From positions 3,168,001 through 3,232,000 of the forward strand of contig CAXXTU010000002.1 in the NCBI GenBank assembly GCA_963662655.2: a stretch of 64,000 nt of DNA, given 5' to 3'. This document shows positions 35,674 to 56,404 of this stretch, piece after piece (positions within the stretch are counted from its first letter, which is position 1; every line of letters begins with the position of its first letter). This stretch comes from Candidatus Cloacimonadales bacterium. Lineage in GTDB: Bacteria > Cloacimonadota > Cloacimonadia > Cloacimonadales > JAIOQZ01. The translations under genes were made by a program, and so were the position numbers. The notes under the pieces were generated by a model. The model made no database searches. It worked only from the letters and a program-made list of their open reading frames with translations, and was not told where the DNA came from.

Positions 35674-36335
35674 TGGCGCATCGATAAAAAGGGATTTCAA
35701 ACGCCCTGGAAGCAAAAACATTGAATCGAGAAAATGATCTTGACAAAGCAGCGGCATAAATCTCAGATAAACTCAAGTCGTGTCTCAATTGTTACGTTGC
35801 TGAAAATCTTGGACATGGATTTTGAGATAATTGATGATGTCCTTGGAGGATGGGTTGAGAATATCTGTATTTCGGTTGACTCTCGCCTTGGAAGCCGCTC
35901 CCTGCAAACCTGTAGGGTGGAGTAGTTCCGGAAACGCGAGACCTTGTTGAACCTCCTCAGAGGATATTCGACCTATGCGCTTTTCGAAGTGTTGGGAACC
36001 GTAGTTTTGGATATGGAGAAATGGCTTGAGAAAACCTTTCGCGTCCTGGAATCCAACTCGTGAAGAGAAGAGGTGATCCATTTATATATCTTATCGGTCT
36101 TGTAATAACACTTTTACAGAACCATGTTCTACGCCACATCGGACAAAACAATTACTTCCCACGCTATAAACTGAATCGCAAATCAGACTCACTGCAGAAT
36201 GTGGGCATCAACCTCACATCGAAGCTAACTATATATAGAATCGTAAAATCGAAACTGGCAAGCCAACGCATGTTCTCAAACCATCACATCGTATTCCTTT
36301 AATTGGGTGCGATACATAAACAGAGGGGACGTACC

Positions 36336-42300: not shown

Positions 42301-42896
42301 AGATGTACCTGATGGGTGGCGGCACAACGACTTTGAACAATTCATGCTACGCAAATGGCACGAATGATGTGGTACTTGCAAGTGGTTCAGACATTCTTGA
42401 TGCAACGACGAACAACATTTCTGTTGATCCTCTATTCGTTAGCGCTGAAACCGGTGACTTGAGAATCGATGGCTCTTCTTCATGCGTGGATACCGGAGAC
42501 AACAACTACAACAGCGAATCCTGTGACATCCGAGGACAGGATCGCATTCAGAATACAACGATTGATATGGGTGCATACGAGTGGACAGTCGGCGTTGATC
42601 CCGGTGAATTGACAGCACCGGCGAATGTAACAATATCTGTCGGAGATAGCTCAATCCTGCTGAGTTGGGCTATAGTACCGAATGCTACGTCATTTATCAT
42701 TTATCGCTCGGAGTATCCTGACAGAGAATTTGTGCAGATCGGTACATCTGCGACGGAAAGCTACACGGACACAGAATTGCTGAGTGGATCCAGTTATTTC
42801 TATTTTGTTGTGGCAGCAAACCCCCTCCGAACTGATCAACAATGTGTAAACACCCGGCATCATCCCGGAGGAGGCAAACAAAAAGTTATCAAGTAA
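36336..42896 (+). CDS. Large secreted protein with five parallel beta-helix (pectin-lyase-like/Pmp-like, choice-of-anchor-Q type) modules and an FN3-like tail
   Basis: GAGGGG RBS and ATG at 36336; signal peptide; five units V....G..DG.SW.DAF.SLQ.AL...GD.IWVA.GTY...GGG...IDMGAYEW. Confidence 0.88.
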   Translation: MKNRKFSILLSVMALAMLLSVTSLSAETIHVDASASGRETGESWTDAFTSLHTALNSAVSGDQIWVVEGVYYATSSFMLSSGVEVYGGFAGTETLLTERDWQANQTILSGDIGQDDVNDDGNWITESWDQQVGTNADHVVVAPYGVDSTARLDGFIVTAGSGTTYYGGGGILNWYSSPSYYNLEIRGNQGQTYGGGMLNASSSPHVENVLIDGNRLINYLSIGYGGGMYNLYGGSPSIINVHFNNNLASAGGGYAGEDVNPSFDNVVFSNNISTGAGGGGVYLKDQSSATMNNTTFRYNQAFSGGGLYHVGGGTLTLSNVAFIENTVLSSEIINCGGGLEAAYGVTVDAVNVSIIGNTAADNGGGVSFTDNSIGTFTNCLFIGNRSVGGTIGGVRACWGSTVTLTNTTFNGNRASGTGGAFGTDWGANAISATNSIIWGNYPDQVRGSGISISYSNVQMDSGVYAGTGNINCNPLFLEAVDPLEAPTTGGDLRINGISPCVDAGENSFNSEALDFRGQARIQNSTIDMGAYEWTDGIDPSFQVIYVNAMADGNNDGSSWVDAFNSLQSGLDAAISGNHIWVAKGTYVPEDSYDLINTPRNYHFRMIEGVEIYGGFSGTETSSNQRTCYGVGEENETILSGDLNGDDVVSGTGETLAFSNYTDNCFHVIYNPDPLTSTSLLNGFSVRGGNADGTNPHNSGSGIYNFHASPSLTNVILIENQGIYGGGIYNQDASPVVTNCIIYRNIAQNGAGSENETSSPVFINTTIVMNLATNAGGGLNNHLNATPTFNNCIIWGNHALTGNQMYISGGGTTTLNYSCYSSQDNDVIMSGATFFADNNNTTENPDFWDATIGDFRLWENSPAVDNGLNSYNRTSTDVRGQARIQNTTIDMGAYEWTLGVDPYSIAGILYVDINAVGANNGASWMDAFTSLQSALDIAIPGDQIWVAKGTYIPSSSYNLTNTPRYYHFRMMEGVEIYGGFSGTETSMDERTNFGMGDENETILSGDRFGDDIVSGSGETLTFSNNSENCYHVIYNPDPLTTASVLNGFTVKGGHGNGTDSFDRGSGFFNSGASPSITNVTVTANEGDYGGGVCNYNASPIITNCLIFGNKTTNNSAGIENSTSSSPVLTNTTIAMNVAMYYGGGMLNYNNCSPVLQNCIVWGNLATTGNQMYLMGGGTTTLNNSCYANGTNDVVLASGSDILDATTNNISVDPLFISAETGDLRIDGSSSCVDTGDNSYNSESCDIRGQDRIQNTTIDMGAYEWTVGVDPPLQVIFVDILAGGNNDGSCWFDAYTSLQSALNEAVSGDHIWVAKGTYKPEYDYGLGGGSRYYHFRMVEGTEIYGGFAGTETGVDQRTNYGFEEANETILSGDLNDNDDFDVTNGGYQGTSGNDNCYHVFYHPDGMNLTNSALLDGFTITGGNANEGSNPHNRGGAFYVFSSSPVIRKVNFDSNKAESIGGAVYMYNSMSFLENVSFSNNISSNSGGGVYVYNGSPEFGCLSFASNYAYNAGAIYFRETTASIRNAIFTGNNSATDGGALSTHSSSLTIANTLFSSNTTTNNGGAIIFYSSSVQYDAVLNNVTISENHAGLSGGGIRFASDNVASTLTINNCVIWNNTATSSGNELSLVSTGSTTISYSCYKNLVNDVETLNGILDATNNNITIDPLFIDAFTQDFRLLGCSPAVNSGLNSYNRTSTDVRGQARIQNTTIDMGAYEWTPGVDPYSIAGILYVDINAVGANNGASWMDAFTSLQSALDIAIPGDQIWVAKGTYIPSSSYNLTNTPRYYHFRMMEGVEIYGGFSGTETSMDERTNFGMGDENETILSGDRFGDDIVSGSGETLTFSNNSENCYHVIYNPDPLTTASVLNGFTVKGGHGNGTDSFDRGSGVFNSGASPSITNVSITANVGDYGGGVCNYNASPIITNCLIFGNKTTNNSAGIENSTSSSPVLTNTTIAMNVAMYYGGGMLNYNNCSPVLQNCIVWGNIATTGNQMYLMGGGTTTLNNSCYANGTNDVVLASGSDILDATTNNISVDPLFVSAETGDLRIDGSSSCVDTGDNNYNSESCDIRGQDRIQNTTIDMGAYEWTVGVDPGELTAPANVTISVGDSSILLSWAIVPNATSFIIYRSEYPDREFVQIGTSATESYTDTELLSGSSYFYFVVAANPLRTDQQCVNTRHHPGGGKQKVIK
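38931..42601 (+). repeat. About 1.2-kb near-identical intragenic direct repeat (38931-40141 and 41391-42601)
   Basis: GGTCTGAACAGTTATAACAGAACATCAACC at 38931 and 41391 (offset 2460); the match continues to GGCGTTGATCC with few substitutions. Confidence 0.95.
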
Positions 42897-44161: not shown

Positions 44162-45043
44162 CTACGCTGCGTTCAATATCTCGTTCGGTGTGCGGTAGCC
44201 CTGCGTGATGATGAGCCGTTCTTCGTTGTAGATCCGAACTGCTTCCTCTACGTACTTCAGCGCGTCGTCGAAGTCCCTGAATCTCCGTTCCAGCCCCAAC
44301 TCGTGCTTCAGAATCCCGTTGATGCGCTCCGCCTTGGCGTTGTCGTAGCACTTGCCCGGACCGGTCATGCTGGTGCGATAGCAGTAGCGTCGCAGCGCGT
44401 TCTGGAAGCAGGCGCTGGTGAATTGCGTACCATGATCGGAGTGGTGGATGCAGCCTTTGATATCCACGGCTCCGGCATTGCGCAACGACCTCATCGCCCG
44501 TTTCAGAGAGAGCGCTGGACCATGCGTGCGCAGGTCGGGCTGCAGCGAATATCCCAGGATCGCGTCCGAGTACTGATCCGAGGTCAGCGAAAGGTAGGCG
44601 AATCCGCGTTGCAACCGGATGTAGGTGATGTCGCTCGCGATGATCTGGCCGACGCGGCGAGCGATGATGTCCTTCACCAGGTTCGGGTGTCGACTGCGGC
44701 TGCCCAGGCTCGTGCGGAGGTATGAGCGGTACGCCGTCGACAGCAGCCCGTAGTCGCGCAGGATGCCGAACAGCCGGTCGCGACCAACCTCGAGCCCGTG
44801 CGCCTTCAGCATGTATTGCAGCTTCCGCGCCCCGACGCGTGGCTGTTTCACGCGAATCTCGCGCACGGCGGATACGATCTCCTCCACCTCCGCCTGGAGC
44901 CGATGGAGCCGCTTCCTGTGCTGGTAGTAGCTCTGCTTGCTGCGACCGAACAAGCCGCAAATCACCTGCATGTTCGCGGCTACTTCTCTTTCTTTCGCGA
45001 CAGCTCGACATTCGGTGATAACAGCGAACCAGTCTTTTTTTTT
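44162..45043 (-). CDS. IS3 transposase OrfB (DDE), expressed by -1 frameshift
   Basis: GARKL, SDITY, HHSDHGTQF, CYDNAKAERINGILKHE, YNEER...GYRTP; A9G at 45034-45043. Confidence 0.88.
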   Translation of the reverse strand, partial: KKKDWFAVITECRAVAKEREVAANMQVICGLFGRSKQSYYQHRKRLHRLQAEVEEIVSAVREIRVKQPRVGARKLQYMLKAHGLEVGRDRLFGILRDYGLLSTAYRSYLRTSLGSRSRHPNLVKDIIARRVGQIIASDITYIRLQRGFAYLSLTSDQYSDAILGYSLQPDLRTHGPALSLKRAMRSLRNAGAVDIKGCIHHSDHGTQFTSACFQNALRRYCYRTSMTGPGKCYDNAKAERINGILKHELGLERRFRDFDDALKYVEEAVRIYNEERLIITQGYRTPNEILNAA

Positions 45044-45387
45044 GCGCTGATGCCGTACTTGCGCTCGGTCACGTTCACGATCGCCTGCAACGCGCAGTTC
45101 TCCAGCACTTTCTCGCTCAACGCAGCCTGCAAATCCTGCACCTTCTTCTCCAGCTCCGCGATTGTCTTGTCCTTGTAATCTTCTTTCGCCATGCGATCTC
45201 GCTTTTGAGCTCCCTTGCGTCGCGCCGGCTTCACGGCGTCCTCTTTGATCCAGCGATACAGCGTGCGAACGGATATGTCGTACTGCTCCGCGAGCTCCGC
45301 CACGCAGTAGTCGCTCGTCAGCACGTGATGCAGAACACGCGCCTTCACCTCGCAACGCTTCGCCCGTCGTTTCACATTTTCTCCCAT
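44980..45387 (-). CDS. IS3 transposase OrfA (HTH)
   Basis: GGAGG RBS; VAELAEQYDISVRTLYRW HTH; coiled coil; ends past the KKK slippery site. Confidence 0.88.
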   Translation of the reverse strand: MGENVKRRAKRCEVKARVLHHVLTSDYCVAELAEQYDISVRTLYRWIKEDAVKPARRKGAQKRDRMAKEDYKDKTIAELEKKVQDLQAALSEKVLENCALQAIVNVTERKYGISAKKKTGSLLSPNVELSRKKEK

Positions 45388-45435
45388 ACCTGAGCCTCCT
45401 TCGACCCAACGGTCAACCTATTTCAGGACGGGACA

Positions 45436-45451: not shown

Positions 45452-45545
45452 CTACACGGATGAAGCCCCGCTCATGCGATGGTTTTTCTTGACACTTAAT
45501 GAAGGTCGTGCGAGTTTCAATATACTTTAGACATTGGGAGAAAAT

Positions 45546-46349
45546 ATGCTGCTTTACGATTTTCCGGATGCGTACGATCTCTTTTACAACGAGAGTTTCC
45601 AGCAATCGACCCGAGACTTCTACAGCAAGTTTCTGCTTAAGAAAAATCTTCGCGAGGTACTCGATTGCACTGCCGGTTCGGGCCAGATGACAATACCCCT
45701 CGCCCAGATGGGCTACAGCGTAACCGCTTCGGATATCAACCGCAATATGATCCGCAAAGCGAGGCTGAACTTCGTGAAGCTCGATCTCATGGCGAACTTC
45801 GTTACCAGCGATATTCTCGAGCTCGAAGAGAAGGTTAAGAGAACCTTCGACTGCGTCATGAGCACCGGGAATTCGCTCGCCCACGTGAAGAACGATCAGC
45901 TCGAGGATGCCGTTCGCCAGATGGATAGCGTACTCAAGCCGGGTGGGATGCTCTACATCGATTCTCGCAACTGGGACTTGATTCTGGAACGACGGCAACG
46001 TTTTTATCTATTCAATCCGCTTATCCGGGATCGTGGGCGCGTCAATTTCGTGCAGGTGTGGGACTACAATACCGATGGTTCGATGGTTTTCAACTTCCTC
46101 GTCTTCGAGGAGATTGAAAACAAGATTGTCAGCAAGCGCCAGTTTTACGTGATTTACTACCCCTTTACAGTCGAAAGGCTGAGGGAAATCCTGGTCTCGA
46201 TGAACTACAGGAATATTCATTTCTTCAAGCTGGGCGATCCGAGCGTCACCGACCTGTCACAAATCGACTGGTTCGCCGTTACAGCAGAGAAACCCTTCCC
46301 CGAAACAGATGACAACAAGAAGAAAAAGATAAAAGGAGGAAGCAAATGA
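45546..46349 (+). CDS. Class I SAM-dependent methyltransferase
   Basis: VLDCTAGSG motif I, VTASDIN, FDCVMSTGNSLAH, LKPGGMLYID. Confidence 0.9.
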   Translation: MLLYDFPDAYDLFYNESFQQSTRDFYSKFLLKKNLREVLDCTAGSGQMTIPLAQMGYSVTASDINRNMIRKARLNFVKLDLMANFVTSDILELEEKVKRTFDCVMSTGNSLAHVKNDQLEDAVRQMDSVLKPGGMLYIDSRNWDLILERRQRFYLFNPLIRDRGRVNFVQVWDYNTDGSMVFNFLVFEEIENKIVSKRQFYVIYYPFTVERLREILVSMNYRNIHFFKLGDPSVTDLSQIDWFAVTAEKPFPETDDNKKKKIKGGSK

Positions 46350-46954
46350 AAGCTTTCAAACTACTTCTGGCTTTAGTTGCTGTTACACTGATTCTCACGG
46401 CATGCGGCGGTCCGGCCAAGACGGTCGAGCGCAGGGCGGTCGATGAGACCATCGACCTGAGCGGACGCTGGAACGACAGCGACCTTCAGCTCACAGCCGA
46501 GCAAATTGTGCGGGATGTTCTCTCTCGCCCGTGGCTGCCGGATTTCATTTCCGCAGAAGACCGAAAGCCGGTCGTGATCGTCGGTACGGTTCGCAATAAA
46601 ACCGCCGAGCATTTGGACACCGTGCCGCTGGTTAACCACATCGAGATGGAACTTATCAACAGTGGAAGGGTCACGTTCGTGGCGAATCAGCAGAAACGCG
46701 AGGAAATCCGCGGCGAGAGAATGGATCAGCAGACGCAATCCTCCGAGGACTCCGCGAAGAGACTCGCTGCCGAAACCGGCGCCGACTTCATGCTTCAGGG
46801 TGAGATCACCTCCATCGAGGACGCGGAAGGCGGACAGAAGGTGATCTTCTACCAGGTCGCGATGGAGCTCATCAATATCGAGACCAACGAAATCAAGTGG
46901 AAAAACACGAAGCAGATCAAGAAATTCATCTCTCAGAAAAGTTCAAAATTCTAA
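46346..46954 (+). CDS. lpoB: Penicillin-binding protein activator LpoB-family lipoprotein
   Basis: LTAC lipobox; DLSGRWNDSD, VRNKTAEHLD, GADFMLQGEI, YQVAMELINIETNEIKW. Confidence 0.8.
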   Translation: MKAFKLLLALVAVTLILTACGGPAKTVERRAVDETIDLSGRWNDSDLQLTAEQIVRDVLSRPWLPDFISAEDRKPVVIVGTVRNKTAEHLDTVPLVNHIEMELINSGRVTFVANQQKREEIRGERMDQQTQSSEDSAKRLAAETGADFMLQGEITSIEDAEGGQKVIFYQVAMELINIETNEIKWKNTKQIKKFISQKSSKF

Positions 46955-46965
46955 GGGGATCGTCC

Positions 46966-48351
46966 ATGAGGAAAATGAACCTTGTTGCGATTCTTGCGCT
47001 GTTCGCGTTGCTCGTAGGGTGCGGCGCGCCGAAGAAAGAGCTTCGCGAGATCGAGAAGAAGCTCGAGAAGAGACAGTTCGACCAGGCATCGCAGCAGGTG
47101 GAAGAGATCAAGGAATCCACATATTCCAAGAAGGATCGCGTGGTGTTCTATCTCGACGCCGGTACCGTCCATCACTACAACCGCGATTTCGACAAGAGTA
47201 ACCAGCGGTTGGAGGAGGCGGAACGAGCGATCGAGGATTTATTCACGAAGAGCATCAGTCGCGCTGCCGCTTCGTATATCCTCAACGACAACATAAAAGA
47301 ATACGACGGTGAGGATTACGAGAATATCTACCTCAACGTTTTCAAAGCGCTGAACTACGTTGGTAAAGACAAGTTCGATGAAGCATTCGTCGAGATTCGC
47401 CGCATTAACAATAAACTCAATCTGCTTGAAGACAAGTACAGGGATTTGGCGGACGAATACAACAAGTCCAAGGACAGCAAGGCGAAGGTTGAAGTGGGAC
47501 GTAACAGGTTCCACAATTCCGCTCTGGGAAGATGGCTGAGCATGTTGATCTATCGCGCGGAAGGCGACATCGACAACGCGCGCGTGGACCGCGAGGCCAT
47601 CGACGACGCCTGGAAGACCCAGAGCCATATCTATGGCTTCGGGAAGCCGGATTTAAGCCATTATCTCGATGCAACGGACAAGGCGCGTATCGATCTGATC
47701 AGCTTCGTGGGAAAGAGTCCCGAAAAGAAGGCGCACACGCTGTACATCCACACGGAGAACAACCTGATCGTATTTGCTTCAACCGCCGAGAATGAGGACG
47801 GAAGGCAGGTCATGACGAACCTTGCACCGATTCAGTGGCCGGGGATCGAGAAGGGGCTTCACTTCAAGTTCGAGATTCCGTTCTTCGAGCCAAGAGGAAC
47901 CATCGTGAAGAGCGTGAAGGTTCTCGTCGACGGCAAGCAGGCCGGAGAGCTGGAGCTTCTGGAAGACATGGAAAAGGTCGCGATCGAAACCTATCAGGTG
48001 AAGAAGCCGCTCGTCCTCATGAAAACCCTCACGCGTACGATCGTCAAAGGGCTGGTGGCTGCCGAGGGCAAGAAGCAGATGGAGAAGGAGATCAAGGATC
48101 CTCTTCTGGCGTTCGGGGCGAGGCTCGCCACGGATATCGCCGTCGACGCGACGGAGAAAGCCGATCTGCGATTGTCGCATTTCTTCCCCGCGAAGGCGAT
48201 GGTGAAGGAACTGGAGGTCACGCCCGGCGAGCATCAGGTATCGCTCGAATACCGCGGCGCAGGTGGCCAGCTTCTCTACACGCACGATCTGGGAATCAGG
48301 GATTTTCAAGCGGGTAAGCTGAATCTGCTGGAGTCGTACTATCTGAAGTAG
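46966..48351 (+). CDS. COG3014-like TPR lipoprotein
   Basis: LVGC lipobox; SNQRLEEAE, Y.GEDYE, EKADLR...FP; usual neighbour of lpoB. Confidence 0.75.
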   Translation: MRKMNLVAILALFALLVGCGAPKKELREIEKKLEKRQFDQASQQVEEIKESTYSKKDRVVFYLDAGTVHHYNRDFDKSNQRLEEAERAIEDLFTKSISRAAASYILNDNIKEYDGEDYENIYLNVFKALNYVGKDKFDEAFVEIRRINNKLNLLEDKYRDLADEYNKSKDSKAKVEVGRNRFHNSALGRWLSMLIYRAEGDIDNARVDREAIDDAWKTQSHIYGFGKPDLSHYLDATDKARIDLISFVGKSPEKKAHTLYIHTENNLIVFASTAENEDGRQVMTNLAPIQWPGIEKGLHFKFEIPFFEPRGTIVKSVKVLVDGKQAGELELLEDMEKVAIETYQVKKPLVLMKTLTRTIVKGLVAAEGKKQMEKEIKDPLLAFGARLATDIAVDATEKADLRLSHFFPAKAMVKELEVTPGEHQVSLEYRGAGGQLLYTHDLGIRDFQAGKLNLLESYYLK

Positions 48352-48387
48352 GATGAATCGTTGCTGCAACCCGATAAAGGAGATATA

Positions 48388-49401
48388 ATGCGTAAACTAA
48401 TCATAATCACATTACTTGTGTGCTCGGTTTTCCTGTTCGCGAAGAAGCAGGAAGCCCCCGAGTGGCTCGACAACCCCAAGTCGATCTACCCCGACGCGAT
48501 GTACCTGAGCGCTCTGGGTGAAGGCGATACGCGTCGCGGAGCTGAAAGCGACGCGGCGGGAAACCTCTCGCGCATCTTCGAGAGCAAGATCACCGTGGAT
48601 CAGACGTATCAGGAGCGCTACCGGGAATTGACCAAAGGCGTATCCTCCGAGACCGAGGAACTCTCGCAGATGGATCGCAATGTGGGTATCCAATCCGAGC
48701 AGACGCTCTTCAATATTCAGTTCGGGGAATCCTACACCGATCCCAAGGGACGCGTGCATATCGTCGCGTATCTCGATCGCATGAAAACGGGAGAAATCTA
48801 CAGCAGCAAGATCGAGGCGAACGCCAACCAGGTCACATGGTATCTGGGGCAGAAGAAGGAGACCGATGATCTCCTCAAGAAATACGCGCTACAGAACGCC
48901 GCGATTATCATCGCGACGAGCAATCGGGTTTTGCTGGAGCAGCTTCGCATCATCTCGCCGAATATGGCGGAATTCATCGACCTGCCCTACAAGATGACCG
49001 AGCTGGAGACGACCCTGCAAGAGATGGGGAAGAAGCTACAAATATCCATACAGATCAAGGGCGACGAGGAAAACAAGATTGCCAGCTCCCTGAAAGAGAT
49101 GTTAAGCGACGCCGGATTCAGTCTGGGCGATAGCGGTATCCTGAAAATCGATGGTGAAATCTCGTTCGAGATGGTCGATCTGGACAAGCAGGATCAGAAA
49201 TTCGTGCGCTGGGAGATCACGCTCGACCTGAACGATCAGCAAGGCGAAAACCTGATTCACTACTACGAAAAAGGACGCGACGGCCACATATCATATCCCG
49301 AGGCGATGGCACGCTCGATTCGAGAGATCGAGAAGAAGCTGAAAAAGCAGTTCATCGGTAAGCTGAACGATTACATCGATGGGTTAGTGATGACGAAGTA
49401 A
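48388..49401 (+). CDS. LPP20-family exported protein
   Basis: AAGGAG RBS; signal peptide; PEWL..P...YP...YLSALGEG....AESDA...LSRIFESKI. Confidence 0.7.
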   Translation: MRKLIIITLLVCSVFLFAKKQEAPEWLDNPKSIYPDAMYLSALGEGDTRRGAESDAAGNLSRIFESKITVDQTYQERYRELTKGVSSETEELSQMDRNVGIQSEQTLFNIQFGESYTDPKGRVHIVAYLDRMKTGEIYSSKIEANANQVTWYLGQKKETDDLLKKYALQNAAIIIATSNRVLLEQLRIISPNMAEFIDLPYKMTELETTLQEMGKKLQISIQIKGDEENKIASSLKEMLSDAGFSLGDSGILKIDGEISFEMVDLDKQDQKFVRWEITLDLNDQQGENLIHYYEKGRDGHISYPEAMARSIREIEKKLKKQFIGKLNDYIDGLVMTK

Positions 49402-49568
49402 TTGTGGTTTTGCCCGAGAGTCCATGCTACATTGTTCCTTGTACTGAAGTCGAATCGCCCATTTTCTGATTTTATTTCAGTAATAATGGGCGTTGTGGAA
49501 TAAATCTTTCATACTGTCAAAGACTTGCCAGAATGGCAAACGTATTTCTGCATTATTTGAGGGGAGAT

Positions 49569-50138
49569 ATGAAAAAGATAATCTTTGCGCTTGTGATTGT
49601 GCTGGCGATGTTTATTCTCGTGGCCAAGACGCAATCCTATCACCATGTGGAGCCCGGCAAGTGTATCGGCTGCACGCTGTGCGTTCAGAAATGCCCTGTT
49701 CAGGCAATATCCATGCAGGACGGCAAAGCGGTGATCGATCGCGAAAAGTGCATCCAGTGCGGTCTTTGCATCAAAGCTTGCCCGGTGACGGCCATCTCCG
49801 TCGTGGAAGAAGCCGCGGCACCGGATTCTCTTGCGGAACAACCGGATAGCGTCGATACGCCCAAGCAGGAAGAGCCATCCACAGGCATGATCGAGACACA
49901 GGAAGAACCTGCACCCACTGTGGAAGCCGTTGAAGAGCAGATTGCCTCGACTTACTATCACGTACACGATAATAAATGTATCGGTTGCATGGTTTGCCCG
50001 AAATCCTGTCCCGTCGATGCGATTCACATGAAGCAGGGCGTGGCCGTAATCGATACGGAAAAATGCATTAAATGCGGTCTATGCAAACGCGATTGTCCTG
50101 TTGCCGCGATCTCCGTGGAAGAGAAACAATCCAGCTAA
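49569..50138 (+). CDS. Exported tandem di-ferredoxin (four CxxCxxCxxxCP motifs) with an acidic Pro linker
   Basis: Sec-type signal MKKIIFALVIVLAMFILVA; CIGCTLCVQKCP, CIQCGLCIKACP, CIGCMVCPKSCP, CIKCGLCKRDCP. Confidence 0.88.
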   Translation: MKKIIFALVIVLAMFILVAKTQSYHHVEPGKCIGCTLCVQKCPVQAISMQDGKAVIDREKCIQCGLCIKACPVTAISVVEEAAAPDSLAEQPDSVDTPKQEEPSTGMIETQEEPAPTVEAVEEQIASTYYHVHDNKCIGCMVCPKSCPVDAIHMKQGVAVIDTEKCIKCGLCKRDCPVAAISVEEKQSS

Positions 50139-50165
50139 TGATATAAAAATCACCTTGGAGCTTTC

Positions 50166-53100
50166 ATGCGTAAACAACGTTTACTGCTGATTCTGATGCC
50201 GTTGCTCTCCTTCTTCTTGTTCTACTGCACGGACAAAATCAGCAAAAATCCCGAAAACGACGGCGACGTTCGCGTCGAGTACTCGAGCTGTACCGCCTGT
50301 TATGAGTGTATGGACCTGTTCAGTTGTCCGCAGAATGCGATCTACATCGATGAAATGCGTGGAACCGCCACCATCGATCCTGATAAATGCGTCCGCTGTA
50401 TGCGCTGCATCACCGAATTCACCTGCGAGTACAATGCATTCACCTTCAAAGAAGATTTGATTCCGCCTGCGCCCATCACGGATTTCAGTGCGGTTTCCGA
50501 TTCGATGGGAACGATCGACATCAGCTTCACCGCGACGGGTGACGATTCCACGTCAGGAATCGCCTGGCGATATGAGCTCAACCTGAAAAACGCAAGTGGT
50601 GAAGTACTGCTCCCCGATTTCCAGCCCAACGCGCCAAAGATCGCCGGTTTGAAGGAAACGTGGCACCTGAGCGGCCTGGATTCCCCTCAGACGGTTGCCG
50701 TTGGCGTAAACGTGTTTGACGATTGCGGTTTGTACGCCTCTTCGCAGACGTTAATCGTGGATATTTCTTCCGATTATCCCGATGTTACGGCTCCCTCTGC
50801 CATCACCGATCTGATCGCCCAGCCGGATGCGGATTATGTCACCCTATGGTGGACCGCTCCCGGAGATGACGGCGATGAAGGCACCGCGGCAGCTTACGAT
50901 ATTCGATACAGCCGGACGGCGATTGACAGCCTGAGCTGGGATCAGGCAAGCGTCTTCGAGAATACTATTGCCCCCACTTCTCAGGGTGTGAAGGAGACCT
51001 GCCGGATAACATTGCCGGATCAGGCGAACTACTACTTCGCCGTGCGTGCGCTGGACGATAGCGGCAATATCGCGAGTGTTTCCAACAACGCCCAGGCCGC
51101 CATGACGGCGGACGTTACTCCTCCCGACCAGATAACCACGCTGGTGGCCGGAAACGAGACGACAACCTCGGTTACGCTCACCTGGGAGGCTGTAGGCGAT
51201 GACGGAAGCATAGGGGTTGCCGACGATTACGTCGTGAAATACCACGTGTTGCCTATTACTGCGCAAAATTGGCAAGCGGCCACGACGTACGACGCAGAGA
51301 TGTCTCCTCAACCCGCCGGTGAGACGGAAGAACTCATAATAGAAAACCTGGAAGAAGGATTTGAATACTACTTCGCGGTCAAGGCCGTCGATAACGCCGG
51401 AAACCAGTCGGCGATCTCCAATGTTGCCCACACGCAAACCGTGGACATCCCCGATGAGACGGCTCCTTCTGCAATCGACGATCTGGTCGTGAGCAACACC
51501 TCGACCAGCACCGCGCAATTGCGCTGGACCGCCCCCGGCGGCGACGGCGATGAGGGCTATGCATTTCAATACGTCGTCAAGGCGTCCACACAACCGATCA
51601 CCATTGATAACTGGACTGCGGTCGACGAAATTCCCAATGATTTGTCGCCACAGGTTGCCGGTTCGCAGGAATCGTTCATCGTGACGGGCCTGGAGGCAAA
51701 TACAACCTACTGGTTTGACGTCCGTGCGGTTGACGACGCGCTGAACATCGCAGATCTATCCAACGTCGCGCAGGGACAAACGGCATCCGAAGACGACACC
51801 GTCGCTCCAGGAGCGATCACCGATTTATTAGCTCACGAGGATGATCCAAACATCCTTCTGACATGGACATCGACCGGCGATGACGTCAGCGAAGGGACCG
51901 CGTCATATTACGAAATCAGATATTCTTTCGAGACGATTACCGGTTCCAACTGGGCGGAGGCGACACTTCTGCAAAATCTCCCCATACCCGAAACGGCCGG
52001 AACGCAGCAGCAATACATTTTTACATCTCCGCAGCAAAACACTGCGTATTACTTTGCGATCAAGGCTTTCGACGATGCGCTGAACGCGTCGGAGCTCTCC
52101 AACATCGCGGAGGGAGTGATTGCGGACGATATCGCGCCCTCGCAGATCGACGACCTGCAAGCGACAGCCGGCACCTCGGACATCGAGCTGCAATGGACCG
52201 CTCCTGGCGACGACGGCGATGATGGTACGGCGTTTTCATACGAAATCCGCATGAGCACGGTTGCGATTACCCAGGCGAACTGGGACGATGCCCAATTGCT
52301 GGAAAATCCCCCGACACCTTCTACCGCGGGGACGGCGGAAAGCTACACGGTTGTTGCGCCGCAGCAGGATCAGACGCTTTTTTTCGCCATTCGTGCGACG
52401 GATGACGCGGACAATGTCTCGGCTGTGTCCAACAACGCGGAATCGGGAATCTTCGATACAACTCCGCCGGCGGATATTACGGATTTGGATGCGACGCAAT
52501 CCGGTGAGGAAGCGCTTCTGACCTGGACGGCTCCAGGAGACGACGGTTTTACCGGTACGGCGGAAAGCTACGAGATTCGCTATGCCACGACGATTATCGA
52601 CGAGACCAACTGGGCCTCGGCCACGCTTCTGAGCAATGCTCCATATCCTGAATCGGCGGGAACGCAGCAGCAGTTCTCGGTAGCAGGACTCACGGCGGAT
52701 ATCCAATACTACTTTGGAATCAAGACCCTCGATGACGCCGATAACCAGTCGGGGCTTTCCAACATCGCCGATGTCACGCTGGGCGACGACACGGTTGCGC
52801 CTGCCGCCGTGACCGATCTCGAAGTGGTGGAAAGCTATGTGAACCTCTCGACGATCCGTATCTCCTGGACAGCCCCGGGGGACGACGGCATTACCGGCAC
52901 GGCGGATCATTACGAGATTCGTTATTCGAACTTGCCCATCACCGATGCCAACTGGAGTAGCGCTTCGCTATTCGGCAGTCCGCCCGATCCGGCAAGCGCT
53001 GGAACCGCGCAGACGTTGAATGTGACCGGCCTGGATGAGGGTGAATTGTACTACTTCGCGATCAAGGCGTTCGACGAGATCGGGAATGCAGGTGACTGCT

Positions 53101-53312
53101 CCAATTCACCGGCAGGGAAGATCGTCTACACGATCAGCGCTTCGCAGTGTCGTGATTGCAACCATTGCATCAACCGATGCGATCAGCACGCGATATACGA
53201 TGCGGGTCCTTACAAGGCGATCGATCCCGAACTTTGCATCGCGTGCGGCGAATGCGATCCGTACTGCCCGTACAACGCGATCAGCCCAGCAGTTATAGCT
53301 TATAACGACTAA
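50166..53312 (+). CDS. Lipoprotein: 2[4Fe-4S]-type ferredoxin, 8 FN3-like repeats, 2[4Fe-4S]-type ferredoxin
   Basis: LFYC lipobox-like site; CTACYEC.....CP and CVRCMRC.....CE; eight P..I.DL...W.A.GDDG..G.A..Y.IRYS repeats; CRDCNHCINRC and CIACGECDPYCP. Confidence 0.88.
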   Translation: MRKQRLLLILMPLLSFFLFYCTDKISKNPENDGDVRVEYSSCTACYECMDLFSCPQNAIYIDEMRGTATIDPDKCVRCMRCITEFTCEYNAFTFKEDLIPPAPITDFSAVSDSMGTIDISFTATGDDSTSGIAWRYELNLKNASGEVLLPDFQPNAPKIAGLKETWHLSGLDSPQTVAVGVNVFDDCGLYASSQTLIVDISSDYPDVTAPSAITDLIAQPDADYVTLWWTAPGDDGDEGTAAAYDIRYSRTAIDSLSWDQASVFENTIAPTSQGVKETCRITLPDQANYYFAVRALDDSGNIASVSNNAQAAMTADVTPPDQITTLVAGNETTTSVTLTWEAVGDDGSIGVADDYVVKYHVLPITAQNWQAATTYDAEMSPQPAGETEELIIENLEEGFEYYFAVKAVDNAGNQSAISNVAHTQTVDIPDETAPSAIDDLVVSNTSTSTAQLRWTAPGGDGDEGYAFQYVVKASTQPITIDNWTAVDEIPNDLSPQVAGSQESFIVTGLEANTTYWFDVRAVDDALNIADLSNVAQGQTASEDDTVAPGAITDLLAHEDDPNILLTWTSTGDDVSEGTASYYEIRYSFETITGSNWAEATLLQNLPIPETAGTQQQYIFTSPQQNTAYYFAIKAFDDALNASELSNIAEGVIADDIAPSQIDDLQATAGTSDIELQWTAPGDDGDDGTAFSYEIRMSTVAITQANWDDAQLLENPPTPSTAGTAESYTVVAPQQDQTLFFAIRATDDADNVSAVSNNAESGIFDTTPPADITDLDATQSGEEALLTWTAPGDDGFTGTAESYEIRYATTIIDETNWASATLLSNAPYPESAGTQQQFSVAGLTADIQYYFGIKTLDDADNQSGLSNIADVTLGDDTVAPAAVTDLEVVESYVNLSTIRISWTAPGDDGITGTADHYEIRYSNLPITDANWSSASLFGSPPDPASAGTAQTLNVTGLDEGELYYFAIKAFDEIGNAGDCSNSPAGKIVYTISASQCRDCNHCINRCDQHAIYDAGPYKAIDPELCIACGECDPYCPYNAISPAVIAYND

Positions 53313-53328
53313 GAGATAAAGGATTCTC

Positions 53329-53565
53329 ATGAAACGAACGATTATTATTGCGGCGATCTTGATCGTTGCTTTATCGATACTGATTGCAGCAACCGAGACG
53401 AAACCGGAGGTCTTCCGGAAAGACTGTACAGGATGCGGTGATTGCGTAAAAGCATGTCCGGTGAAGGCGATAGAAGTCCACAATGGCAAGGCGGTGATCG
53501 ATAGCAGGAAGTGTATCAATTGCAAGCTCTGCACAACGAGCTGCACCTTCGGAGCAATCCGGTGA
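53329..53565 (+). CDS. Small exported 2[4Fe-4S]-type ferredoxin
   Basis: Signal MKRTIIIAAILIVALSILIA; CTGCGDCVKACP, CINCKLCTTSC. Confidence 0.85.
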   Translation: MKRTIIIAAILIVALSILIAATETKPEVFRKDCTGCGDCVKACPVKAIEVHNGKAVIDSRKCINCKLCTTSCTFGAIR

Positions 53566-53572
53566 GGCGCGT

Positions 53573-53845
53573 ATGAAGAAACTGCTGATCTATTCCGCTT
53601 TACTCATGATACTGCTTGGGCTTTTCATGACCGCCTGTGATAAAAAAGACTCGATCACGACATCCGCTTCCCCCTCCGCGTTTTACGAGATCGATAGCGA
53701 CGCTTGCATCTCCTGTGGGCGTTGTGTCGATGTTTGTCCATACAATGCCATCCAGTATGATGGGGAGGAGCCGGTCATCATCCAGACACGATGCAAGAGA
53801 TGTGGCGAATGTGTCTCCGTATGCCCGAAGGATGCGATCCAATGA
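53573..53845 (+). CDS. Small lipoprotein 2[4Fe-4S]-type ferredoxin
   Basis: MTAC lipobox; Ser/Thr linker; CISCGRCVDVCP, CKRCGECVSVCP. Confidence 0.85.
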   Translation: MKKLLIYSALLMILLGLFMTACDKKDSITTSASPSAFYEIDSDACISCGRCVDVCPYNAIQYDGEEPVIIQTRCKRCGECVSVCPKDAIQ

Positions 53846-55026
53846 GAAAAACCATCCTGTTTATCATCCTTGCAGGCATGAGTTGCGTTCTTCTCGGACA
53901 GACGGTTCTGAACTCCGAGATGGACAGCCGGGAAGGCTTTGTCGAGCGTTTATATCAATACTTCGATGTCCGGTTCGAGAATGGATTCGAGCTGAGCAAC
54001 ACCTTGTACATGAAGGTCAGCGAGGATCAGGACGAGCTGGAGCGGGATTACCTGAGAAATTACATTCGCGACAAGCTGCGTTTCTCCTTGTTCCGAGAGA
54101 GCTTCTATATTTCTTCGCACGTTGGAATTCAATACTATCACGACGAGCAGCACGAGACGCGTATCTCTGGTGCGGATGAGCAATACCGGCTCAAGAACGC
54201 TTTCTCCGGCGGTATTGATTTCTTCGGAACGTGGGACGGATTGGAGACGCTGCTCGAAGCGAGCTGGTTTGCGAACTACTATGATCGCTATGTGTTCAAC
54301 GACGCCGCGCAAAATTCCGATGATGATTGGGTCGTGAAGGAAGAGAAGAATCAGCTCGATAACGATGGAACCATCAAGGCGAGAATTGCCTATAAATTCA
54401 GCGATTATATCAAGCCGTTCGTGGAGGTGAATCACTTCAACGACATGAACGACATCGACACCTACGACTACACCGAGTACCGGCTCGGAAACCATTTGCT
54501 GAGCAAACTGGACAACCTGCATACTGTCGAGATGGAGGTTGCTGTCGTGAAGACGGACGCGTTCGAGAATCTTCCTGCCTATCTGGATTTCGATCTTCGT
54601 TTGACCAGCAAATATATCCATGACTGGATGTTCATCAACCGCGTCTCCGATAAAATCTGGAAGAACGATGACGAGAGCTCGAAAGCATACGGAAACGGTT
54701 TCTGGGAGTGTATCCTTCAGCATAATCTGAATTTCGATCGAGAGAACCGGGTCGACCGTTTCCTGATGGCGATCAAAAAGCATTTCGACGAGAACGTAAC
54801 CATCGCTCGCACTGGGTTGATGTACTACTTCGGGCCGTTCAGCCTTTACGGCGCATATCATTACTACTTCGGTAACGACCGTGTTAACAACTACAAGACC
54901 GGCATGGAACTTTCGTGGTACTACCCGGCTTACAGCGCGCGAATTTACTACGGCTTCTCGTTGATCGACGCGAGGTATGTCGAGAATACAACCGTTCACA
55001 GTATAAACATCGAGTTAGGCTATTGA
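53842..55026 (+). CDS. Predicted outer-membrane beta-barrel protein
   Basis: ATGA overlap with the upstream gene; signal peptide; many alternating aromatic/hydrophobic strands; C-terminal ...HSINIELGY resembles a BAM beta-signal. Confidence 0.72.
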   Translation: MRKTILFIILAGMSCVLLGQTVLNSEMDSREGFVERLYQYFDVRFENGFELSNTLYMKVSEDQDELERDYLRNYIRDKLRFSLFRESFYISSHVGIQYYHDEQHETRISGADEQYRLKNAFSGGIDFFGTWDGLETLLEASWFANYYDRYVFNDAAQNSDDDWVVKEEKNQLDNDGTIKARIAYKFSDYIKPFVEVNHFNDMNDIDTYDYTEYRLGNHLLSKLDNLHTVEMEVAVVKTDAFENLPAYLDFDLRLTSKYIHDWMFINRVSDKIWKNDDESSKAYGNGFWECILQHNLNFDRENRVDRFLMAIKKHFDENVTIARTGLMYYFGPFSLYGAYHYYFGNDRVNNYKTGMELSWYYPAYSARIYYGFSLIDARYVENTTVHSINIELGY

Positions 55027-55027
55027 G

Positions 55028-56404
55028 ATGATTCAATCGTTGGCTGAAGGTTTTTCGCTCGGACTTGCGACCGGAATTGTTTGCCTCTCCACTTGCACGC
55101 CGATTTATCTGCCCTATCTGCTGAGCAGCGATCGCAAGCTGCTGAAGAGCTTTGGGGTGATCCTGGAGATATCCGCTGGAAGGTTCTTCTCTTATCTCAC
55201 GTTCGGCGCGATCGCGGGATTTCTGGGAGCGCAGATCGGTCAGGTGAATCGCGATTTGTTCACCGCGATTGCCTACATCATGCTCTCGGTGTATTTGATT
55301 CTCTCCGCTGTGAGGTCGCGGAACGAGCATAAAAAATGTGCGGTTCCCAAGATGGCTGCCATGACGCGCAGTCCTTTCGTATTAGGGATTCTAACAGGTA
55401 TAAACTTTTGCCCGGCTTTCCTCATCGCGCTTTCCAATGCGCTCAACCTCGCAGGCGCGTTGAGTGGAATGCTGCTGTTCATGGGATTTTTCTTCGGAAC
55501 TTCGCTGTTCCTGATCCCTTTGGCGTTGGCGAATTTTCTGACGAAGATCCGCCAGATGAAGCAGATCGCTCAGGTTGCTTCCGTGCTGATCGGTATCTGG
55601 TTCATCGGCAAGGGGCTTTTCATGCTCTATGGATACGCGGTGGGTACGGAGGTCAACAATCCGTTCGCGCCCGGCAAGGAGCTGGCGGTTGTTTCATCCG
55701 AAGCGGATATGGCGTATTTCACGGATTTGAGAGATTCGCTACAAGTTCGTACGGATGAGGCTGTCGATCTGCTAGAATTCAGCCCGGGTGGAGCCTTGGA
55801 GAAGAGGAAATCCGTGCTTTATTTCGTTAACCGGACACTGGTCGAGCAGGATTCAGCGGCATTCGAGGGGATGGATTATTTCGCAGTAGAAGCCGGCTAT
55901 CCCATCGGCGAGATGATGATGTATCTCACGACGGTCTTTCAGGGGTGTCCGGACGAAAGTGAATATGGTGACGGGAACAACAACCTGTGCTCCACATGCA
56001 CCCTGACGAAGGGACTTGATTTCTCGGGAAGGTTCCCGGTTGATTTCGAACAAAAAGAATTGTACATGATGGATGTGTTTGCTCCCGGAAATCAACTGGT
56101 CATTCTTGCGGACAACGACGATCCGTACTGGAAAGAACTTCAGAACACTTTGCAAGCCAATATACAGAAACCGATTCAGTTCATGCCTTTCGATCCCGGT
56201 AAAGACTTGCCGAACGAGGAGACGACTGTCTATATCATACCACAATCGGCCGAGCAGATAGCTCAGGACTCGGGGTGGATCGATTCGCTTCATACGATTG
56301 TCGTACCGAAAGGGTATTCGCCTCAGACCATCGCGGGATTTCTCAAGAAGTTCACGTTCAAGGTGGAAAATAGGCTAAGCTGGCATTTCGATGCCGACAA
56401 ATGA
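55028..56404 (+). CDS. DsbD/CcdA-like (DsbD_2/TauE-like) membrane protein with a C-terminal soluble extension
   Basis: About 6 TM helices; GIVCLSTCTP and GINFCP membrane cysteines; GRFFSY.TFG...GFLG pattern; tail contains C...CSTC. Confidence 0.75.
   Translation: MIQSLAEGFSLGLATGIVCLSTCTPIYLPYLLSSDRKLLKSFGVILEISAGRFFSYLTFGAIAGFLGAQIGQVNRDLFTAIAYIMLSVYLILSAVRSRNEHKKCAVPKMAAMTRSPFVLGILTGINFCPAFLIALSNALNLAGALSGMLLFMGFFFGTSLFLIPLALANFLTKIRQMKQIAQVASVLIGIWFIGKGLFMLYGYAVGTEVNNPFAPGKELAVVSSEADMAYFTDLRDSLQVRTDEAVDLLEFSPGGALEKRKSVLYFVNRTLVEQDSAAFEGMDYFAVEAGYPIGEMMMYLTTVFQGCPDESEYGDGNNNLCSTCTLTKGLDFSGRFPVDFEQKELYMMDVFAPGNQLVILADNDDPYWKELQNTLQANIQKPIQFMPFDPGKDLPNEETTVYIIPQSAEQIAQDSGWIDSLHTIVVPKGYSPQTIAGFLKKFTFKVENRLSWHFDADK

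Follow-up and report, generated by a model that had tools for sequence, protein, structure and literature searches.

A two-headed ferredoxin lipoprotein of Cloacimonadota and its possible role in heme-free electron transfer

The dumbbell protein and its operon

A stretch of 64,000 nucleotides (nt) from Candidatus Cloacimonadales bacterium (GenBank assembly GCA_963662655.2, contig CAXXTU010000002.1, positions 3,168,001 to 3,232,000; in the following, the window) contains an operon of six genes, the second of which encodes a lipoprotein with a ferredoxin-like domain at each end of a stalk of FN3 repeats. We refer to this lipoprotein as the dumbbell protein. Its operon, with intergenic gaps of 27, 16, 7, -4 and 1 nt, represents a real, conserved and apparently undescribed system, the function of which we infer. 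No description of it was found in the literature searched, where supplementary gene tables (e.g. those of PMC8542988 and PMC8238504) could list the genes. In window coordinates, the operon genes and the parts of the dumbbell protein are as follows.

49569..50138, plus strand: FdA, a signal peptide and a pair of 2x[4Fe-4S]-motif domains with an acidic linker between them; 189 amino acids (aa) from an ATG preceded by a ribosome-binding site
50166..53312, plus strand: dumbbell protein, 1048 aa; signal peptide with predicted lipid-bearing Cys21, N-head, eight FN3 repeats, C-head
50166..50228, plus strand: Sec-type signal peptide of the dumbbell, ending at the predicted lipidated Cys21; twin arginine absent
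50271..50450, plus strand: N-head, a ferredoxin-like domain with 2 x CxxCxxC-x5-C and 8 invariant Cys; predicted local distance difference test (pLDDT) about 41-62, i.e. low
50460..53132, plus strand: stalk of 8 acidic FN3 repeats of about 111 aa each, CLCA-type WTAPGDD subtype, short linkers
53133..53309, plus strand: C-head (tip), a 2x[4Fe-4S]-motif ferredoxin domain with 8 invariant Cys
53329..53565, plus strand: Fd78, a signal peptide and a clostridial-type 2x[4Fe-4S] ferredoxin; core gene
53573..53845, plus strand: Fd90, a lipoprotein (MTA-C) 2x[4Fe-4S] ferredoxin overlapping the barrel start; core gene, candidate barrel plug
53842..55026, plus strand: outer-membrane beta-barrel, 394 aa, 20 strands predicted, plug domain absent; core gene
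55028..56404, plus strand: DsbD_2 (CcdA-like) inner-membrane protein with invariant C19, C23, C104 and C128; the C-terminal soluble domain is apparently duplicated here

The initial annotation had named the 78- and 90-aa ferredoxins as context of the dumbbell, but mentioned neither the barrel nor the membrane protein nor the absence of twin-arginine translocation (Tat).

The dumbbell has CxxCxxC motifs from residues 42 (nt 50289), 75, 995 (nt 53148) and 1024 onwards, and the two nucleotide positions are exactly those at which two-cluster domains had been annotated. Both Fer4 families and fn3 (E 1.5e-41) are found above cut-off by Pfam. Each head contains two motifs of the CxxCxxCxxxC type, departures in spacing aside: in the N-head the spacing is CxxCxxC-x5-C twice, in place of x3, and the last spacing of the C-head, compared across 52 dumbbells, is x1 in 24, x2 in 8 and x3 in 20. 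The C-head is homologous to Fd90 (hhalign 97.6%) and in the AlphaFold2 model it runs straight on from the last FN3 strand. A lipobox had also been annotated. Its Cys, C21, is shared by all 51 dumbbells of the alignment, with D23 and K27 downstream nearly invariant, and lipidation is predicted; the LFY-C sequence itself is however non-canonical, while most homologues have ordinary lipoboxes, e.g. LISC, IVSC or LSGC. A type IX secretion system (T9SS) tail is absent from the dumbbell itself.

The eight FN3-like repeats of the initial annotation are recovered. A hidden Markov model of the dumbbell's own repeats finds 8 of them across residues 99-989, and the AlphaFold2 model consists of tandem beta-sandwich domains (mean pLDDT 85.3; the predicted template-modelling score, pTM, is 0.36, so that the overall geometry is undefined). 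The signature WTAPGDDG..G.A..Y.IRYS occurs exactly in only two repeats, WTAPGDD in four and a looser form in seven of the eight. By NCBIfam, seven stretches match the FN3 region at the C-terminus of CLCA proteins (TIGR00868, positions 742-862), and a search of PDB sequences with the stalk returned generic FN3 proteins only (e.g. titin and contactins).

Conservation of the dumbbell and evolution of its stalk

The homologue set consists of 121 proteins, the query plus 120 matches, the best among 692. Of these proteins, 52 carry a pair of Cys motifs at each end, 65 have the same repeat type without a ferredoxin motif and 4 are partial; the named dumbbell homologues belong to Cloacimonadota. The initial annotation had raised two doubts, that the architecture might be unique to this assembly and that the Cys domains might be lost in close homologues. 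An assembly chimera is rejected by full-length orthologues in three genomes of the same genus (64-66% identity) and by homologues further afield: of 60 relatives sampled, 15, in five families, match the dumbbell at E<1e-30. Both heads are kept in the 52 sequences, with all 16 head Cys invariant in the 51 that were aligned. The stretch 49400-55609 is also spanned by one contig in each of two runs with zero differences, although both runs stem from one sample, possibly the source, and are not independent. At locus L084, on a contig labelled Armatimonadota that is possibly mis-binned, lies an operon with an 8-repeat dumbbell of 1053 aa, laid out as in Cloacimonadota locus L118.

The number of repeats in the 52 dumbbells is 4 (n=13), 5 (14), 6 (16), 7 (2), 8 (6) or 14 (1), where the counts of two may be one too low, and the repeat unit is 110.7 aa long. 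Gaps between repeats are at most 4 residues in 206 of 234 cases. A quick tree was built for 75 repeats, taken from 12 of the dumbbells. In it, the first repeats cluster together (support 100), as do the last repeats (92), while internal duplications are seen among the middle ones. Because of this pattern we suggest that the ends of the stalk are specialised and that its middle is an expandable spacer. The surface reach of the dumbbell could then be tuned via the repeat number.

Two further ideas about the stalk were rejected. A four-repeat minimum could have been a sign of folding back, but two two-headed proteins with 3 repeats are present among 120 listed shorter matches. A conductive aromatic stalk is at odds with its aromatic content of 9.1%, which equals that of control repeats of the same FN3 type without ferredoxins (8.3%). 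The dumbbell repeats are more acidic than such ferredoxin-free repeats, with D+E of 15.4% vs 10.9%.

The core of the operon and its distribution

From GTDB, 80 loci were fetched via the DsbD_2 marker; 61 of them have the barrel, 5 lie too close to a contig edge and 56 are testable for gene order. The order Fd78>Fd90>barrel is kept in 55 of these 56, and in all 19 testable loci of genomes that have the barrel only (20 of 25 such genomes were fetched). Because the order holds in 74 of 75 testable loci, Fd78, Fd90 and the barrel are, as judged from gene order, the core of the operon, and the dumbbell is optional. The initial annotation had offered the stalk as a scaffold for the small ferredoxins, but this finds no support, as they track the barrel gene and occur also at loci without a dumbbell. 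Fd78 and Fd90 have canonical clostridial ferredoxin motifs; their matches to NF058577 are below cut-off.

The distribution was studied in one even set of 151 Cloacimonadota genomes that are at least 90% complete. The barrel is found in 78, DsbD_2 in 61 (two of them weak), both in 53 and a NapH-like gene in 119; these counts describe distribution only and are not a statistical test, kin not being independent. The operon recurs in Fibrobacterota, where the DsbD_2 marker is found in 18 of 151 sampled genomes. In Cloacimonadota relatives, a NapH-like gene and FdA often head the operon. The NapH-like gene is nearly always single-copy in this phylum and has an invariant HxxCP-C motif; in the genome studied here this membrane Fe-S gene lies outside the window, separate from the operon (C2:1473513-1474361, minus strand).

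The operon lacks a gene for a terminal reductase, and no signal-transduction gene is a constant member of it. In 50 upstream regions, neither Fur, Rex, FNR, DtxR and CRP boxes nor shared palindromes are in excess over shuffled sequences, a weak test based on consensus boxes. Local additions are seen in two families. In one (loci L037-L039, L041 and L048), a gene resembling a heavy-metal P-type ATPase by its N-terminal sequence precedes the operon, and in another (L112:9966-16180), two kinase-like genes and a sigma54-type regulator are found between DsbD_2 and the NapH-like/FdA genes.

Alternative display modules

At the 80 GTDB loci, FN3 repeats with a tip head are found in 35, a tip-type head with a T9SS tail in the dumbbell slot in 10, both in none and neither in 35 (some of them truncated or split). 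The tail scores above the TIGR04183 cut-off in 4 of 4 tested proteins, and SprA is above cut-off in 5 of 5 genomes with a T9SS-tailed tip head. The present genome also has SprA and, outside the window (C2:1563089-1564069, minus strand), a second exported ferredoxin gene. Its product has 2x[4Fe-4S] motifs behind a signal peptide, followed by a middle domain and by a tail of the T9SS type (260 aa), and it scores slightly best against the tip-head profile. The mutual exclusion of stalked and T9SS-tailed heads therefore holds per locus and not per genome.

In Fibrobacterota, the operon encodes lipoproteins of 270-1043 aa with a different FN3 type and a tip ferredoxin only, and an N-head-like lipoprotein has a gene of its own, apart from that of the stalked tip. 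Two loci of this phylum (L203:11259-12371, plus strand; L216:11150-11998, minus strand) encode a ferredoxin domain that is apparently inserted within an FN3-like domain and is followed by a Cys-rich ferredoxin-like domain. Lipoproteins free of Cys motifs that start with C-x-D-(S/L)-x-x-K occupy the dumbbell slot at L211:7455-7913, L212:5204-5650, L215:6304-6774, L216:2596-3060 and L220:2356-3489; the one at L211 has no Pfam match. Three Fibrobacterota loci have a short stand-alone DsbD_2 in another gene context.

Because T9SS-tailed tips, one-headed forms and a separate N-head-like gene occur, the two heads are best read as separate modules on one shared anchor. This bears on an option that the initial annotation had also listed, a flexible swinging arm. 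In this model the stalk would fold back, the N-head would charge the C-head of the same molecule and the C-head would swing to the acceptor. Such an arm would be compatible with the conduit proposed below; both heads are kept in 52 sequences, and the undefined domain geometry of the AlphaFold2 model (pTM 0.36) leaves room for it. However, the linkers are mostly of 4 residues or fewer (206 of 234), two-headed forms span 3 to 14 repeats, and the heads are found apart in Fibrobacterota and in one-headed forms, so we consider the arm very unlikely. Of the three roles first proposed for the stalk, a spacer that projects a redox head agrees best with the range of repeat numbers, with the duplication of the middle repeats and with the presence of the tip head also on a T9SS tail or on another FN3 type.

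Probable iron-sulfur identity and export without Tat

A twin-arginine leader is absent from all six operon proteins of the window, from the 52 dumbbells and from 138 small ferredoxin leaders (loci L052-L123 and L221-L240, two of which are labelled other phyla). TatC was not found in the present genome, which is 98.95% complete, and among the Cloacimonadota genomes it occurs in 3 of 151, all three lacking both the barrel and DsbD_2. Among the operon proteins, a twin-arginine signal together with TatC in the host is a feature of some Fibrobacterota members only. There, TatC is present in 15 of 16 carriers, and twin-arginine leaders are found on 5 small ferredoxins, some Fd78 counterparts among them, and are absent on 37. 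Furthermore, 10 of 11 NapH-NapG-like fusions of Fibrobacterota have an internal twin arginine and hydrophobic helix followed by four Cys motifs, the same layout as that of the Sec/Tat polyferredoxin in an excerpt of PMC5449189.

The swaps between Tat and Sec leaders, the lipoboxes and the T9SS tails argue that these domains lie outside the cytoplasm. The canonical motifs argue that they bind Fe-S clusters, as do the Cys->Asp swaps at the second ligand that are seen in 4 of 463 ferredoxin motifs; Asp at a ligand position has a precedent in Asp-ligated ferredoxins. An opposite reading is that in vivo the Cys motifs bind Zn or form disulfides instead of holding Fe-S, and that the dumbbell is a structural adhesin. 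The absence of a Tat route, the unusual Cys spacing in the dumbbell heads and the use of the same FN3 subtype in non-redox surface proteins (65 of the 121 sequences) would all fit this. It leaves unexplained, however, the canonical clostridial motifs of Fd78 and Fd90, the Cys->Asp swaps, the twin-arginine leaders on counterparts and the NapH-NapG-like neighbours, and we regard it as extremely improbable.

Because Fe-S motifs are present on exported domains whose leaders lack a twin arginine, in hosts without TatC, loading of the clusters after export is implied. Clusters could possibly self-assemble from Fe2+ and sulfide on reduced Cys. The four-Cys DsbD_2 protein is a candidate loading helper, though it is missing from 25 genomes with the barrel. 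With regard to cytoplasmic cluster assembly, the present genome has no match to SufBD, vs one in each of 14 control genomes, and its single IscU-like gene adjoins a likely cysteine desulfurase.

The barrel and the DsbD_2 protein

In the AlphaFold2 model of the barrel (pLDDT 89.3, pTM 0.79), 20 strand elements take up the whole mature chain and a plug is absent. The barrel family is small, with 118 representatives, and none of 30 members tested matches any Pfam family (E 0.01). In PDB sequences the barrel has no match and DsbD_2 no meaningful one. Structurally, the barrel aligns in full length to the barrel part of TonB receptors (Z 17.2, root-mean-square deviation, rmsd, 4.6-5.3) and to MtrB (Z 16.2, rmsd 5.8, 337 aligned positions, 7% identity). 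A complex of the barrel with Fd90 is predicted at a score of 0.44 (best control 0.00), a weak hint of contact that does not give the interface. Of 157 solved complexes, 116 come up to the 0.44 mark, as do 2 of 215 mismatched pairs; at or below 0.60 it is reached by only 18 of the 157 and by both mismatched pairs. In the barrel-Fd90 runs, contact agreement was at least 8% and the pLDDT of the partner at least 58.

The barrel might be an export channel rather than a conduit. In such a reading it would be a SLAM-like export or maturation channel for the lipoproteins of the operon, and the surface ferredoxins would act alone as sensors or adhesins. SlipAM clusters are indeed among the ESM feature neighbours of the barrel (score 0.95, rank 15, a recognition value below the reliable range), and a C-[ST]-D-x-x-x-K start is common to lipoproteins of the dumbbell slot, whether or not they carry a ferredoxin. 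On the other hand, PF04575 is found in 0 of 30 barrels, soluble Fd78 is as well conserved as the lipoprotein, the barrel is retained at loci without a stalked lipoprotein, and a constant signal-transduction gene is lacking. We give this explanation a slim chance.

The DsbD_2 protein matches PF13386 at 73 bits (cut-off 24.9) and its ESM neighbours concur; a topology scan by hydropathy and positive-inside counts gave four of the six expected helices. Cytochrome c assembly (PF01578) is absent from the present genome and is found in 2 of 151 genomes of the phylum, and because of this DsbD_2 is not taken to serve cytochrome maturation. Between the two copies of its apparently duplicated C-terminal domain lies a Cys-containing linker, GCP...LCSTC (window 55028-56404; also L025:10982-12283). 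In the three genomes of the same genus, the DsbD_2 gene lies far from the operon. Homologues of 205 aa with four Cys are encoded at L208, L209 and L210 (around 6834-10613), beside a cytoplasmic Fe-S gene cluster and with no ferredoxin operon.

The best structural matches of the barrel are TonB-dependent receptors for iron, B12 and ferredoxin, which suggests a second reading, the acquisition of iron or Fe-S. Apo-heads at the surface would capture Fe2+ or FeS in sulfidic water and pass it through the barrel to the periplasmic ferredoxins, and DsbD_2 would import the metal or the cluster. Sec export of apo-proteins would be explained with no new maturation system required. The four invariant Cys of DsbD_2, more than the two-Cys relay of CcdA, are in line with this, and so is the present genome with one IscU-like gene and no SufBD. 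However, the barrel has no plug domain, 25 of the 78 barrel genomes lack DsbD_2, and Fur- or DtxR-like boxes show no excess in the (weak) test described above. In addition, some counterparts have twin-arginine leaders and so would be exported as holo-proteins, and the NapH-NapG-like fusions of Fibrobacterota point to electron transfer. Acquisition is unlikely in our view, though far from negligible.

The co-occurrence of the barrel with a DsbD_2/CcdA-like protein (53 of 78 barrel genomes) could also reflect low-flux maintenance of the envelope. A DsbD-style trickle of electrons, along the chain proposed below for the conduit, would keep surface enzymes or metals reduced, cleave disulfides or scavenge oxidants, with no energy conservation. 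The DsbD family generally feeds extracytosolic thiol chemistry, and the operon is without a terminal reductase. A DsbD-DUF3570 system with flavinylated partners is described in an excerpt of PMC8238504. Against this, a thioredoxin-like partner is not seen in the operon, and several low-potential ferredoxin types together with a long, variable stalk would seem to exceed the need. Maintenance of this kind is rather improbable.

A possible porin-ferredoxin conduit

The known electron conduits of Gram-negative bacteria rely on hemes, and the general view is that Fe-S proteins of the periplasm receive their clusters in the cytoplasm and leave it by Tat. The latter is consistent with an excerpt of PMC5449189. 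In the genomes searched, the operon departs from both expectations; of the 151 Cloacimonadota genomes, 78 have the barrel gene, and TatC is absent from all of these. We suggest, at what we judge to be about even chances, that the dumbbell is the optional surface terminal of a heme-free porin-ferredoxin electron conduit that works like MtrCAB. Excerpts of PMC7096707 describe MtrAB as the minimal module and MtrC as optional, and the analogy is drawn because the core of barrel and carrier with an optional surface lipoprotein parallels this. Operon structure, signal peptides, conserved ferredoxin motifs, the lack of TatC and of cytochrome c assembly, and the interchange of display modules come from comparison of sequences and genomes; the barrel and its weak contact with Fd90 are predicted, and the electron chain is proposed on this basis.

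In such a conduit, electrons would start from a cytoplasmic reductant and enter the NapH-like and/or DsbD_2 membrane protein, from which they would pass to periplasmic FdA and Fd78. These would reduce Fd90 seated in the barrel, which in turn would reduce the N-head at the surface, held near the outer membrane by the predicted lipid anchor, and the N-head would hand the electrons to an external acceptor (a mineral, a humic or sulfur compound, or a partner cell). The outward direction is guessed from the fermentative lifestyle.

At 4 nm per FN3 domain, the eight domains of the stalk, likely a passive spacer, might keep the C-head about 30 nm out. That the heads would be beyond tunnelling distance when the stalk is extended, as the initial annotation had stated, is borne out by the stalk's length of about 870 residues; in multicentre redox proteins, each centre lies less than 15 A from the next (PMC12203936, excerpt). 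Because the stalk far exceeds this spacing and has no wire-like feature, the tip head would be charged not via the stalk but by contact with other heads, through bending or on neighbouring molecules, or by a diffusible carrier.

Several points weigh against the conduit. It is a short wire, as one or two ferredoxins provide 2-4 clusters vs the 10 hemes of MtrA. The structural matches of the barrel are generic (8-10% identity) with the top Z tied with transporters, and uptake fits the fold equally well. The link to the inner membrane is loose, 25 of 78 barrel genomes being without DsbD_2 and 8 of 61 DsbD_2 genomes without the barrel, and many of the 119 genomes with a NapH-like gene have no barrel. 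The Cys spacing is non-canonical in the N-head and in many C-heads, and the N-head is poorly modelled. No sequence feature bridges the two heads, the stalk aromatics being like those of the control repeats, and some Fibrobacterota loci hold only a Cys-free FN3-like lipoprotein in the dumbbell slot. A route for Fe-S loading outside the cytoplasm was not found in the literature searched.

If the clusters are real, there must be a way of assembling Fe-S outside the cytoplasm, and if the conduit is, it would be a candidate route of direct electron exchange by Cloacimonadota. For such exchange in this phylum, conductive pili are the only route proposed in the excerpts (PMC7382037). Other excerpts on Cloacimonadota mention cellulosome-like structures (PMC8542988) and a possible T9SS (PMC11285876), but not this operon. 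It can be speculated further that about half of Cloacimonadota and a part of Fibrobacterota share an undescribed heme-free form of extracellular electron transfer. Ferredoxins would be threaded through a barrel and displayed on stalks of tunable length, exported unfolded by Sec and loaded outside in a Tat-independent way, maybe via DsbD_2, and would link syntrophic fermenters electrically and directly to minerals or methanogenic partners. This wider proposal is tentative and we lean somewhat against it.

Other genes in the window

Directly upstream of the operon, window 45534-49401 (plus strand) encodes a methyltransferase, an LpoB-family lipoprotein, an unknown lipoprotein and an LPP20 lipoprotein, which are not beside the operon in the loci of relatives. 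A giant protein of 7014 aa (1815-22859, minus strand) is likely a surface adhesin; it combines about 50 He_PIG immunoglobulin-like repeats with a CHU_C type IX signal domain. A secreted protein of 2197 aa (36303-42896, plus strand) consists of repeated beta-helix units with near-identical internal repeats. Two overlapping open reading frames at 44162-45409 (minus strand) resemble an IS3-type transposase pair.

Comparison with known systems

The novelty of the operon rests on its falling outside each of the known systems considered, as judged from its genes, while its function is what we infer. Clostridial-type 2x[4Fe-4S] ferredoxins share the CxxCxxCxxxCP pairs and the Fer4 fold family with the operon proteins. 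Their typical members are cytoplasmic, whereas those of the operon carry signal peptides, lipoboxes or T9SS tails, and the N-head has the x5 spacing. The FN3 surface proteins of the CLCA type (C-terminal region of TIGR00868; Zixibacteria, Eisenbacteria and others) also have tandem WTAPGDD stalks, often with signal peptides or T9SS tails; the 65 matches of this kind have no ferredoxin motif, while the dumbbell repeats are more acidic and capped by ferredoxins at both ends. Unlike a TonB-dependent receptor, the barrel has no N-terminal plug, aligns only to the barrel range of the receptors and is predicted to fall short of 22 strands. To the SLAM or surface-lipoprotein translocon it is an ESM feature neighbour only, with PF04575 in 0 of 30 barrels.

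The flavinylation systems with DsbD, DUF3570, DUF4266 and NapH-like proteins (PMC8238504, excerpt) resemble the operon as heme-free extracytosolic electron transfer that is fed by membrane proteins of the DsbD family or NapH-like ones. However, the operon has ferredoxin carriers and contains no ApbE, FMN-binding, DUF3570 or thioredoxin gene. No operon protein has an apbE or DUF3570 Pfam match, and the apbE gene of the genome lies far off, at C2:908139. The DsbD_2 protein is moreover PF13386 with four Cys and not PF02683.

Closer on the inner side are NapGH and the Sec/Tat polyferredoxin PFD (PMC5449189, excerpt). The NapH-NapG-like fusion of Fibrobacterota corresponds to these in its internal twin-arginine helix and four outer Cys motifs, and the separate NapH-like gene and the 2-4-cluster FdA of Cloacimonadota are a further likeness. 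The outer ferredoxins of Cloacimonadota differ in having Sec-type leaders in hosts without TatC. A linked nitrate reductase is missing, and the operon has a barrel and surface proteins in addition.

The porin-cytochrome complexes are set apart because the operon has no hemes. It encodes neither these nor cytochrome c assembly, its carriers having 2x[4Fe-4S] ferredoxin motifs, and CxxCH occurs twice in only one stop-to-stop open reading frame of the genome, none being in the operon. The barrel is also smaller than MtrB, with 20 predicted strands vs 28 (excerpts; 7% identity), and the dumbbell differs from an MtrC-type terminal in its two small heads with a cofactor-free stalk between them. In architecture, however, the conduits MtrCAB, MtoAB/PioAB and PCC3/PCC4 (PMC7096707 and PMC5566968, excerpts) are alike, as they combine a plugless barrel, a periplasmic redox protein, an optional surface redox lipoprotein and an inner-membrane protein. 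The minimal two-part core with an optional surface terminal is common to them and the operon.

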